The translations under genes and the position numbers were made by a program. DNA of 25,301 nt, taken from positions 1 to 25,301 of the forward strand of contig JAGHBM010000003.1 in the NCBI GenBank assembly GCA_021160955.1, in the 5' to 3' direction. This document shows, in pieces, positions 8,482 through 11,140 of this stretch. Position 1 is the stretch's first letter. Each line of letters opens with the position of its first letter. The stretch is from Candidatus Aenigmatarchaeota archaeon (lineage in GTDB: Archaea; Aenigmatarchaeota; Aenigmatarchaeia; PWEA01; JAGHBM01). Under the pieces are notes generated by a model. The model ran no database searches. It saw nothing but the letters and a program-made list of their open reading frames with translations, and was not told the DNA's origin.

Positions 8482-8496
8482 AAAAATAGCCCCGTA
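8482..8496 (+). repeat. Direct repeat of the tRNA-Gln 5' end (AAAAATAGCCCCGTA; second copy 8584-8598)
   Basis: Exact 15-nt match spaced 102 nt apart, containing tRNA positions 1-9. Confidence 0.85.
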
Positions 8497-8604
8497 ACCG
8501 TAGGAAACTTTTAAAAAAGTTTCATCAAAACTTAGATGAAGGCAATTTGGCAATGAATAAAAAGACACCAACAAAAAATTATAAAAAATAGCCCCGTAGT
8601 CTAG

Positions 8605-8685
8605 GAGGCCTTTTCTTTCACAAAGAAAAGCACTCGTGGAAAAGAAACTTCCACGAATTTTGTGAAATAGGAAAGGCCTAGGCAA
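8605..8685 (+). other. tRNA intron 1 (81 nt, D-loop position 15/16)
   Basis: Central helix G10-U13 (GUCU) pairs with AGGC 8680-8683. Bulges are AG|G and AA|U. Inner helix AGGCCUUUU 8606-8614 pairs with GAAAGGCCU 8671-8679. The outer helix is absent (relaxed motif). Confidence 0.85.
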
Positions 8686-8708
8686 TGGCCAAGGATGCCG
8701 GGCTTTGG

Positions 8709-8748
8709 TTTTAAAACCAAAGCATTGAGCTTTGCAATGAAAGAAGAA
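8709..8748 (+). other. tRNA intron 2 (40 nt, canonical position 37/38)
   Basis: BHB: C32-U35 (CUUU) pairs with GAAG 8743-8746; bulges GG|U and AA|A; inner UUU/AAA; outer helix is the anticodon stem. Confidence 0.88.
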
Positions 8749-8769
8749 ACCCGGTGACCCAGGTTCGAA

Positions 8770-8940
8770 CCCCTACGGAGGGAACACATTTCCCTCCTTA
8801 TGGACATATCCTCCCTTTGTAATTTTGGGCAAACTGAAAGTTTGCCATGATATTGGTTGGGTCCCATAGTCTGGACCAATGTGGACAACCCAACCAAAAT
8901 TTAAGGGAGGGGTCAGACGGATAGCGGTTCCGCGCGGAGA
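8770..8940 (+). other. tRNA intron 3 (171 nt, T-loop position 59/60)
   Basis: BHB: U54-G57 (UUCG) pairs with CGGA 8935-8938; bulges AA|C and GA|U; outer helix is the T-stem; inner closure is only C8771-G8934. The body holds several strong stems. Confidence 0.85.
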
Positions 8941-8958
8941 TCCTGGCGGGGCTACCAA

Positions 8959-8978
8959 TTTTTATTTCTTGAATTTTA
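8959..8978 (+). terminator. Oligo-T terminator of the tRNA gene
   Basis: TTTTTATTTCTTGAATTTTA immediately follows the CCA. Confidence 0.6.
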
Positions 8979-9275
8979 TCACTTGTCATCATTCGGCTCG
9001 CTCAAAATTTCATAGGTGATTATCTCCGTGTATATCTTTTCTACGGACAGTATGGGAGTGATGATTCCATAGCTCATTCTCGAACCTTCAAACTCTCCCA
9101 TGGGAGCAGATGAAAATTTTTCATCTTTGAAAATAAACACATCAAGAAGCCTACCTTTTGAGAAGAAATAGACGAAAGGTGTGAGGATTCTCACCTCTTC
9201 CCATAGGTTTAATTTATCTTCAATGGTTTTCCAGTCATCGGAGCGAGAAAAATTATCATTAGATATCCTTCCCAA
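8979..9275 (-). CDS. Small hypothetical protein (start uncertain, TTG)
   Basis: 98-aa ORF with plausible composition; overlaps the 9209-9379 ORF in another frame. Confidence 0.45.
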   Translation of the reverse strand: MGRISNDNFSRSDDWKTIEDKLNLWEEVRILTPFVYFFSKGRLLDVFIFKDEKFSSAPMGEFEGSRMSYGIITPILSVEKIYTEIITYEILSEPNDDK

Positions 9276-9432: not shown

Positions 9433-10590
9433 ATGAACAAAAAATATTTTTTTGGAATCAGTTTGAATGTATTGATTCTCGGTTTGGTTAGCTTCTTGAA
9501 CGATATGAGCAGCGAGATGATAATGCCAATCCTTCCCATGTTCATAACTGCATTGGGTGGCGGTAGCATAGCAGTTGGATTGATAGGTGGATTGAGAGAC
9601 AGTATATCCAACGTGCTGAAGGTTTTCTGCGGTTATTGGTCAGACAAGACGGGCAAAAGAAAAACATTCATCTCTTCTGGATATACACTATCTTCAGTAT
9701 TCAAATTCATGTTGGTATTTTCGAGAACTTGGGAACATGTACTTTTGTTTGCAAGCTCTGAGAGAATTGGAAAGGGGCTGAGAACTGCACCGAGAGATGC
9801 CATCATATCAGAGTCTATGCCCAAAAGCAAGGGAAAGGGATTTGGAATTCACAGGGCTTTGGACACCCTGGGCGCAATCGTCGGTTCGTTGATCGTATTC
9901 TTTCTCTTCTGGTTCTTGAAGTTTGACTTCAGAACAATAATCCTCATCGCTTCGATGATAGCATTAACATCTTTGATCCCGTTGTATTTCGTGAAGGAAA
10001 AAAAGAAGAAGCAACAAAACATCACACTCAGAGTAAGTTTAAAGAATTTACCAAGAGACTTGAAATTCTTTTTGTTGATATCCTTCGTATTTTATCTGGC
10101 GAACTTCAGTTACATGTTTTTCATACTTAGAGCACAGGAATATTTCACCGGGAGATACTCGATAGGGATACCGATCTTGTTGTATGCTTTGTTCAACGTA
10201 TTCTATGCAGGTTTATCGGAACCTTTTGGAGCGCTCTCAGACAGAATTGGAAGGGAAAAAATCATTGCGCTGGGATACTTGTTGTTTTCCTTGACTTCAC
10301 TTGGGTTCATATTTTCGAATTCCCTACCAATGTTTATGGTCTTGTTCGCTTTTTATGGAATAACTTATGCAATGATAGATGGAAACCAGAGGGCATTTGT
10401 ATCGGATATTTCTTCAGAGAAATTTAGGGCAACTGCATTGGGAACATTTCACACGACCATCGGCATAGCATCACTACCAGCCAGTATGTTGGCGGGAATT
10501 CTCTGGCAAATAAATCCATCAATAACATTTGCATATGGCTCGTTGGTTAGTTTGATTGCGGTTGTATTGTTCATTTACAAATTTTATTAA
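9433..10590 (+). CDS. Major facilitator superfamily transporter
   Basis: About 12 hydrophobic segments; [14 protein letters not shown] start; motif-A-like [11 protein letters not shown] and [11 protein letters not shown]; [14 protein letters not shown]. Confidence 0.93.
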
Positions 10591-10612
10591 AAACATAGAA
10601 CAAAAACTAAAC

Positions 10613-11140
10613 ATGATCGTAGTTCTAAGATTGGGACACAGACTTGGAAGAGACTCGAGAATATCTACCCACGTGGGGTTGGTTGCCAGAGCCTTCGGAG
10701 CCGATGGAATTATTTATTCTGGAGAGAAGGACCAAAAGATGATGGAAAGTGTGAAGAAGATAACAGAAGAATGGGGTGGTCCGTTCGAGGTAGAGTATGA
10801 AAAGAATTGGAGAAGGGTGATTAACAACTTCAATGGCATCAAAATACATCTGACTATGTACGGTATACCTGTGCAGGAAAAAATCGAAGACGTGAGAAAA
10901 AAATCGAATGGAAAAGATTTGATGATTATCGTTGGTGGGGAAAAGGTTCCTGGAGAGGTATATGATATGGTAGACTACAACATTGCAATAACCAATCAAC
11001 CACACAGCGAAGTCGCAGCATTGGCTTTGTTCTTACACGAGTACTTTGAAGGGGAAGAATTGGAAAGGAATTTTGAAAAACCAAGAATAAGGGTAATCCC
11101 TCAAGAGCGTGGAAAGAAAATTAAAAAGATCAAGAAGTGA
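10613..11140 (+). CDS. trm56: tRNA (cytidine(56)-2'-O)-methyltransferase, archaeal SPOUT family
   Basis: Motifs [43 protein letters not shown] and [11 protein letters not shown]. Start moved to ATG 10613. Confidence 0.95.

Follow-up and report, generated by a model that had tools for sequence, protein, structure and literature searches.

A 171-nt T-loop intron in an Aenigmatarchaeota tRNA-Gln gene and its family of cassette-built tRNA introns

The closest described tRNA introns

In published surveys, the introns of archaeal tRNA genes measure 11–129 nucleotides (nt), with medians of 12–25 (PMC4090602). In Candidatus Micrarchaeum acidiphilum (ARMAN-2), the pre-tRNA-Cys(GCA) carries a 13-nt intron between tRNA positions 59 and 60, which has a relaxed splice motif of the hBH type and is cut in vitro by an epsilon2 endonuclease (Fujishima et al. 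2011, PMC3239211). Here we describe a 171-nt intron at the same site, in the T-loop of a tRNA-Gln(UUG) gene of a Candidatus Aenigmatarchaeota archaeon (assembly GCA_021160955.1). The gene lies in positions 1 to 25,301 of contig JAGHBM010000003.1, a stretch of 25,301 nt that we refer to as the window; coordinates are those of its forward strand, on which all of the features described lie. Our analysis indicates that the element, intron 3 of its gene, is probably a protein-spliced member of a lineage-specific intron family, built from palindromic cassettes that undergo shuffling in the DNA, with the excised RNA as a by-product.

Like the ARMAN-2 intron, intron 3 occurs in a member of the DPANN archaea, occupies the 59/60 site and has a relaxed bulge-helix-bulge motif that uses the T-arm. 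It differs in length (171 nt, and 135–228 nt across its family, versus 13 nt), in being assembled from recurring cassettes and in that the family occupies most of the tRNA genes of the genome rather than a few. The processing enzyme also differs: in place of the epsilon2 type, a single alpha4-like endonuclease gene is present.

The transposed tRNA introns of the Thermoproteales have very similar sequences across isoacceptors, attributed to DNA-level spread after divergence of the tRNAs (Fujishima et al. 2010, summarised in PMC4090602). As in the cases covered by that summary, similar introns occur here in tRNA genes of different isoacceptors. Whereas the Thermoproteales introns are summarised as short and located at many positions, those of this genome favour one dominant site and are mosaics with swapped, nested and inverted cassettes. 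The euryarchaeal tRNA-Trp intron, in which a box C/D guide RNA is nested (Omer 2000; Clouet d'Orval 2001; Singh 2004, cited in PMC4090602), is, as far as that article cites them, the sole precedent for an intron with a function of its own. Intron 3 resembles it in being a long archaeal tRNA intron with surplus structure. Unlike the tRNA-Trp intron as cited there, intron 3 contains no C, D, C′ or D′ boxes, matches no Rfam snoRNA or sRNA above noise, lies in the T-loop rather than the anticodon loop, and has relatives in many tRNAs rather than one. Certain eukaryotic tRNA genes carry D-, anticodon- and T-arm introns in one gene at bulge-helix-bulge-like motifs (PMC3728597; PMC9602550), as does the gene described here. 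Those nuclear introns are short and share no cassette family, whereas the introns of this genome are long and cassette-built.

The new features are therefore a size above the 11–129 nt range, the near-universal occupancy of one non-canonical site, and a cassette architecture with nesting and inversion. A full-text search, with most subscription journals outside its coverage, turned up no description of long T-loop introns in DPANN archaea, Aenigmarchaeota included. In this respect, the initial annotation, which was made from the sequence alone and suggested that the element may belong to an undescribed class, is in line with the literature found.

The tRNA-Gln(UUG) gene and the structure of intron 3

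The tRNA-Gln(UUG) gene (8590–8957) was read by hand from bulge-helix-bulge motifs; it comprises three introns and an encoded CCA. The exons, read in the same manner, occupy 8590–8604, 8686–8708, 8749–8769 and 8941–8957. At the borders of each of the three introns, a 4-bp helix is flanked by two bulges of 3 nt.

Intron 3 (8770–8940, 171 nt) separates tRNA positions 59 and 60, as delimited by its splice motif, its fold and the breakpoints of metagenome contigs. In the 5′ half of the motif (8764–8770), bases T54–G57 (TTCG, 8764–8767) are followed by a bulge formed by A58, A59 and the first intron base, C, with the predicted cut after 8769. In the 3′ half (8935–8941), CGGA (8935–8938) pairs with TTCG and is followed by a bulge of G, A and T60, with the predicted cut after 8940. 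The four pairs of the central helix are U-A, U-G, C-G and G-C, and the 5-bp T-stem provides the lower outer helix. Intron 3 thus has a 4-bp helix, opposed 3-nt bulges and a predicted cut after the second bulge base, the features by which a bulge-helix-bulge intron is recognized. The upper helix is weak and is non-adjacent on the 3′ side; the motif is accordingly of the relaxed hBH type, as in the tRNA-Cys of ARMAN-2 (PMC3239211). When forced, it costs 1.0 kcal/mol over the free fold.

DNA of the window also occurs in hydrothermal-vent metagenomes; look-ups of the locus listed no RNA data set, and relatives with exact matches bear the label Candidatus Aenigmatarchaeota. The metagenome contigs, which were compared at 85% likeness and several of which have a depth below 5, derive from related populations and not from this strain. 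They leave the window sequence exactly at 8769/8770 and at 8940. Together, the splice motif and these points of divergence confirm the borders given in the initial annotation.

Intron 3 is strongly folded. Its minimum free energy (MFE) is −63.7 kcal/mol, as compared to −50.2 ± 4.5 kcal/mol in 200 dinucleotide-preserving shuffles, 2 of which folded as well (z = −3.0). The z-score of the whole precursor (8590–8960) is −6.4. The structure of intron 3 is therefore real and beyond chance. All five stems listed in the initial annotation are present. Hairpin H1 (8777–8797) pairs GGAGGGAA (8777–8784) with TTCCCTCC (8790–8797) across a 5-nt loop. The long-range helix H2 joins CCTCCCTT (8810–8817) to AAGGGAGG (8903–8910). 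The M2 hairpin (8828–8846) consists of GGCAAACT (8828–8835), a GAA loop and AGTTTGCC (8839–8846), and is followed by the long M3 hairpin (8847–8901), whose base pairs TTGGTTGGGT (8853–8862) with ACCCAACCAA (8888–8897) and whose tip is variable. The 3′ domain, annotated variant C (8903–8940), contains the AAGGGAGG strand of H2, a GCG-GTTC-CGC hairpin (8924–8933) and the splice-site strand. In RNAfold, the MFE and centroid structures agree on the first four of these stems; the GCG/CGC stem is replaced with a 4-bp hairpin at 8918–8932. Overall, these data uphold the description of an unusually long, autonomously folded T-loop intron. As to the assertion that it holds more structure than splicing needs, the strength of the fold is borne out; an excess over need is a judgement rather than an observation.

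The other long T-loop introns of the genome are comparable: all 13, intron 3 included, fold at −0.28 to −0.43 kcal/mol per nt. The GC content is 0.50 in intron 3 and 0.41–0.52 across the long T-loop introns, versus 0.387 in the genome. In a related contig from metagenome run X3, the 5 letters that separate H1 from the CCTCCCTT strand (window 8803/8809) are replaced by 46 others; this would be another cassette-sized insertion point inside intron 3.

Intron 1 (8605–8685, 81 nt) interrupts the D-loop at position 15/16; its central helix pairs GTCT (8599–8602) with AGGC (8680–8683). It is rod-shaped and consists of a pyrimidine/purine hairpin and, downstream of it, a purine strand that forms a mirror repeat of run lengths (4,3); it is 100% identical to its counterpart in the tRNA-Gln(CUG) gene on contig C80. 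Intron 2 (8709–8748, 40 nt) occupies the canonical position 37/38, with a central helix of CTTT (8703–8706) and GAAG (8743–8746) and bulges GG/T and AA/A, the slash marking the cut. A BLAST self-match revealed a perfect 22-nt palindrome (8702–8723) that takes in the anticodon loop together with the first bases of intron 2 and competes with the 37/38 splice motif. The 15-nt direct repeat AAAAATAGCCCCGTA (8482–8496 and 8584–8598) places a second tRNA 5′ end ∼100 nt upstream of the real one, which may be a rearrangement remnant or a decoy 5′ exon.

Removal of the three introns in silico yielded 76 nt that ARAGORN identified as tRNA-Gln(ttg) with a normal cloverleaf. Because of the three introns, no tRNA was detected in the raw window by ARAGORN or by Rfam at the gathering score.

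The genome encodes one splicing endonuclease, EndA (contig C11, 611–1225; 204 amino acids; PF02778 and PF01974), with one N-terminal and one catalytic domain. Its best match in the PDB is 1a79, the alpha4 enzyme of M. jannaschii, and its sequence suggests that it is alpha4-like. The ligase RtcB is encoded on contig C24 (13894–15201). About 1.6 kb downstream of the tRNA gene lies the gene (10556–11140) for Trm56, the tRNA C56 2′-O-methyltransferase, which acts on the T-loop. Given this gene, ribose methylation of the T-loop would be protein-made and not guide-made.

Recurring cassettes and their rearrangement

The assembly of this archaeon comprises 609 kb in 82 contigs, with a GC content of 0.387, a completeness of 86% and a contamination of 0.1%; the genome measures roughly 0.7 Mb. 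A scan for the acceptor stem, T-stem, TTCRA and CCA that permitted a gap in the T-loop yielded 17 complete tRNA genes, 13 of which carry an insert of 135–228 nt at the 59/60 site. Among the remaining complete genes, one has an insert of 44 nt and one perhaps of 12 nt, and three have none; five further, partial genes are truncated by contig ends within such T-loop inserts. Once the T-loop insert, where present, was removed, ARAGORN called 16 of the 17 genes, whereas standard tools report only 4–8 tRNAs in this genome. Both tRNA-Gln genes (UUG at 8590–8957 and CUG on C80) carry a long T-loop insert, so splicing must work. In all 13 long inserts, the four bases that precede the last two intron bases pair with the T-loop UUCR, and forcing the splice-motif fold costs 1–6 kcal/mol. 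Besides intron 3, 11 of the 12 long introns have YGAGAR before T60; that of C80 has CGGAGA, the same as intron 3.

According to BLAST against the assembly, intron 3 is a mosaic of pieces that recur on about a dozen contigs. The inserts are chains of the hairpin cassettes M1, M2 and M3, and their 3′ domains are of about five alternative kinds. M1, located close to the 5′ end of the intron, is a pyrimidine/purine hairpin with a purine linker after it; M2 can be written as GCAAAC-loop-GTTTGC; and M3 has a base of GGTTGGGT and ACCCAACC and a tip of 3–25 nt. Within this genome, M2 in its short-loop form, M3 and the H1 block are confined to tRNA loci. M3 is found after M2, inside the loop of the first hairpin (M1) or, on contig C74, in a D-loop intron. 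An M1-type block likewise occurs in an anticodon-loop intron on contig C14 and in intron 1 of the tRNA-Gln(UUG) gene. The same intron sequence is thus present at different tRNA positions, as in a transposed intron family. We also considered M3 as a nested bulge-helix-bulge mini-intron; on inspection, its base has 1-nt asymmetries and not 3-nt bulges four pairs apart, and this reading was discarded.

Introns are nearly identical across isoacceptors. That of tRNA-Asn on contig C33 matches intron 3 at 82% over the full 171 nt and has the same layout, with a compensated M3 stem (TTGAGT/ACTCAA); that of tRNA-Gln(CUG) on C80 matches at 99% over 78 nt. An identical H1 opens the T-loop introns of these two genes and, in genomes G002 and G004, those of other tRNAs. 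The variant C domain also ends the T-loop introns on contigs C33, C48 and C2 (C2:580), its small hairpin not being retained in all. Related introns are thus present in other tRNA genes and genomes, the homologues that the initial annotation had anticipated. The end of contig C33 (C33:1–188, L026) is chimeric, the 5′ part and T-loop intron of tRNA-Asn being joined to the 3′ exon and trailer of the tRNA-Gln gene. A genuine tRNA-Asn with a tRNA-Gln 3′ exon was ruled out by the orthologues in G002 and G004, in which the true 3′ exon ends TCCTGCCCGAGGCGCCA. Contigs C2 (at its start), C64, C65 and C14 also break inside T-loop introns; these repeats thus fragment the assembly.

The 5′ part of intron 3 is inverted. 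The block that contains H1, the CCTCCCTT strand and M2 (8771–8848) aligned as its reverse complement with the 3′ part of the C29 intron, which comprises M2 and a segment annotated domain D (64 of 82 positions identical; score 68, versus 23 in the sense orientation), and with the C69 intron (53 of 65 identical). Downstream of M2, intron 3 continues with M3 and then with a sense-oriented 3′ domain that opens with AAGGGAGG. The two strands of H2 are therefore an inverted and a sense copy of one AAGGGAGG motif, and the junction of the inverted and sense halves lies at the palindromic M2 hairpin. In the C80 paralogue, the first 78 nt are 99% identical, M3 is absent and the 3′ domain is a different one, indicating that M3 is a discrete insertion or deletion.

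Beyond this genome, the cassettes recur, always as 59/60 introns, in G002 and G004 (sister genus) and in G005; no convincing cassette match was found in 33 genomes outside the family. Shorter T-loop introns of 52–92 nt, consisting of M1, a linker and M2, are present in G002, G003, G004 and G006, and by their composition look like an archetype that was enlarged in this genus. Standard tRNA matches number 1–14 per genome across the family, versus 15–30 in a sister family within that order. The tRNA-Gln(CUG) gene at L006 (genome G024, contig C3, 1793–1895), which belongs to a different family of the class, has 14 extra bases at this T-loop site, with no convincing central helix by eye; they may reflect either a small intron of another kind or a displaced border.

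Cassette content varies among close relatives. The orthologous tRNA-Asn genes of G002 and G004 have M1+M2 introns, unlike that of the present genome. In metagenome run X1, a variant tRNA-Gln(UUG) gene retains the exons and intron 2 with 3 differences and has an M1-type intron directly after 8769. Another contig of that run joins GTCTAG directly to 8686. One metagenome contig has CGGT in place of 8605–8689, and one has 32 other letters, instead of 171, between 8769 and 8940. The differing cassettes in paralogues, orthologues and the metagenome variant indicate that cassette content turns over faster than the host gene.

Of all the elements of the intron family, M2 is conserved most widely, with 25 copies in five genomes. 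At two of its seven stem pairs, both partners have changed (C-G to A-U or G-C, and C-G to U-A or A-U). Its covariation score was 0.276; the shuffles gave 0.082, with none of the 500 reaching the score of M2, and slid partners gave no more than 0.103. In 14 aligned copies of M3, six of the ten base pairs are invariant and one G-C pair is changed to A-U in 3 copies. The H1 and H2 stems are identical among homologues and hence yield no informative covariation. The covariation foreseen in the initial annotation is thus found in M2 (8828–8846), through compensatory changes across five genomes, whereas H1 and H2 are uninformative and M3 is mostly invariant. Overall, these data demonstrate that the pairing is under some constraint. 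By contrast, the loops of M2 and the tips of M3 vary freely, which, together with the use of one block in both orientations, would argue against a sequence-specific function.

Origin, role and significance of the T-loop introns

The explanation that we favour is that of a protein-spliced intron whose RNA is discarded. In the precursor, as sequence and folding show, T-loop bases 54–57 (UUCG) pair with CGGA near the end of the intron, and the resulting motif, with the T-stem and the bulges, is of the kind cut by the splicing endonuclease. RtcB would then join the exons and the intron would probably be circularised. The 171-nt body is a chain of self-contained hairpins (H1, M2, M3 and the 3′ hairpin) plus one long-range helix. 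These hairpins come from a common stock of palindromic cassettes, which tRNA introns gain and exchange through changes in the DNA and which may even be inverted in the process. In intron 3, M2, itself a palindrome, marks the point at which an inverted 3′ half is fused to one in the sense orientation. The heavy structure may have two causes. One is the cassette origin itself, as only palindromes would survive flipping. The other is selection for a self-folding insert that would unite the splice sites and spare the tRNA fold 171 extra bases. The excised RNA is most likely a by-product without a dedicated function in trans.

Several observations weigh against this explanation. The weak helix above the 5′ bulge makes the motif a relaxed one, and typical alpha4 endonucleases are reported to require a strict motif (PMC3239211, PMC5829648). 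No reverse transcriptase was found in the 86%-complete assembly, and retro-homing by such an enzyme was discarded. Pure junk would not be expected to persist, as the family does, in nearly all tRNAs of at least three genera with so small a genome. Selection on RNA pairing is evident both in the raised GC content of the introns and in the compensatory changes of M2, and it also fits a functional RNA. Finally, we infer rather than observe that the introns are spliced, in what order this happens and what becomes of the excised RNA. A viral origin of the cassettes was also considered and rejected: the M2 pattern matched four IMG/VR contigs, all unrelated AT-rich hairpins and approximately the number expected by chance, and the M3 pattern matched none.

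Of the alternatives, the one that survives best is that proposed in the initial annotation, namely that the excised and circularised intron, or the family as a whole, is a stable, trans-acting non-coding RNA of a new class, such as a protein scaffold or guide, with the tRNA gene merely providing a host and promoter. This we consider unlikely. It would account for the z-score of −3.0, for a GC content of 0.50 against a genomic 0.387, for the M2 pairing kept through double changes in five genomes and for the maintenance of the family in a very small genome. It would also fit the order of M2, M3 and the AAGGGAGG domain that is common to the introns of tRNA-Gln(UUG), of tRNA-Asn on C33, and of C48 and C2:580. 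However, a conserved RNA is difficult to reconcile with at least 13 paralogous, cassette-built introns whose content is unlike among paralogues, orthologues and strains, or with a 78-nt block that is used both ways round, complementing every loop. Moreover, M2 loops and M3 tips are free to vary, and the invariance of H1 and H2 provides no covariation in their favour. The analogy drawn with the C/D guide of the tRNA-Trp intron also fails: a C box (RUGAUGA, at most one mismatch) is absent from intron 3 and from 11 of the 12 other long T-loop introns, and this reading was discarded. Nor did an Rfam family emerge. No curated family of Rfam 15, including group I and II introns and H/ACA RNAs, reached the gathering score in the window. 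At E-values up to 10, the segment 8400–9200 matched only snoRNA, miRNA and lncRNA models at 15–22 bits, which is noise against cut-offs of 35–90. In 16 intron loci, no Rfam family except tRNA (partial matches, E-values up to 0.05) was detected.

There is a slimmer chance that the insert acts in cis, blocking the elbow of the tRNA until splicing and thereby ordering or gating its processing, or directing an intron-dependent modification of the T-arm. Consistent with such a role, T54–R57 are engaged in the central splice helix, so that the T-loop cannot fold before splicing, and 13 of the 17 genes share this one insertion site. Intron-dependent modification is, moreover, known elsewhere, from the tRNA-Trp intron (PMC4090602). 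Nevertheless, three or four tRNAs of this genome and many in the sister family lack the insert, and the Trm56 gene close by is that of an ordinary protein enzyme. In ARMAN-2, a 13-nt intron suffices at 59/60 (PMC3239211), and a role in cis leaves the 171 nt and the turnover of cassettes unexplained.

We give a similarly slim chance to the possibility that the cassettes encode intramolecular triple helices and are more than filler. M1, which more often than any other cassette comes first in these introns, consists of a pyrimidine strand, CC-U(n)-C-U(m), its Watson-Crick purine partner and then a second purine strand, A(n)-G-A(m), whose runs follow one another 5′–3′ as those of the pyrimidine strand do. 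The mirrored run lengths agree in 17 of 19 copies, including the asymmetric pairs (3,2), (4,3), (3,4) and (4,5); the repeat was noted at intron 1 (8605–8685) and at L008, L009, L014, L017, L018, L020–L023, L031, L032 and L034–L038. Judged by base order, such a mirror repeat is the signature of a candidate triplex-forming tract, and neither duplication nor inversion would be able to produce it. Intron 1 has this mirror arrangement; intron 3 has only a weaker analogue (8777–8784, 8790–8797 and 8810–8817), in which CCUCCCUU (8810–8817) mirrors the pyrimidine strand of H1 and could lie as a parallel third strand on GGAGGGAA through C+.G-C and U.A-U triplets. As the principal explanation of intron 3, a triplex was rejected: the diverged copy at L010 loses the mirror relation, and the GGAGG core is its own mirror image. 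Were triplexes to form, they could protect excised circles from decay, giving a stable RNA class, or, at the DNA level, drive the recombination that shuffles the cassettes.

A DNA-level role is less probable still. Randau and Soll, as cited in PMC3239211 and PMC4090602, put forward the idea that introns protect attachment sites; here the insert would split the integrase attachment site that runs from the T-arm to the 3′ end and so shield tRNA genes from viruses and plasmids. In nearly every tRNA gene, the insert does lie in the 3′ part, where conservation is highest, and such a role would explain both the fixed site and the lax constraint on sequence, but a short intron would serve equally well. 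That intron 3 is an assembly artefact, a mis-joined repeat in a metagenome bin, is hardly credible: several contigs do break inside such introns (the start of C2, C64 and C65) and the end of C33 is chimeric, but overlapping Logan contigs of run X1 with 0–1 differences each tile 8756–9000, although none spans the whole intron, parts of the intron occur in contigs of relatives from three other studies, the same design is found in 13 complete genes on separate contigs, and the spliced product is a perfect tRNA.

In this archaeon, then, most tRNA genes of a roughly 0.7-Mb genome carry inserts of 135–228 nt at one non-canonical site. With these long T-loop inserts, standard tools find 4–8 tRNAs, and annotations of the lineage will consequently under-report its tRNAs. 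The introns provide a clear record of how protein-spliced introns grow and spread, with discrete cassettes, nesting, palindrome inversion and replacement between close strains. The alpha4-type endonuclease has been tied to heavy tRNA disruption in DPANN archaea (Kaneta et al., PMC5829648), and the presence of a single alpha4-like endonuclease alongside relaxed T-loop motifs bears on the co-evolution of endonucleases and tRNA disruption proposed there. If the excised circles are stable or capped by triplexes, they would constitute a new and abundant class of RNA in DPANN archaea.

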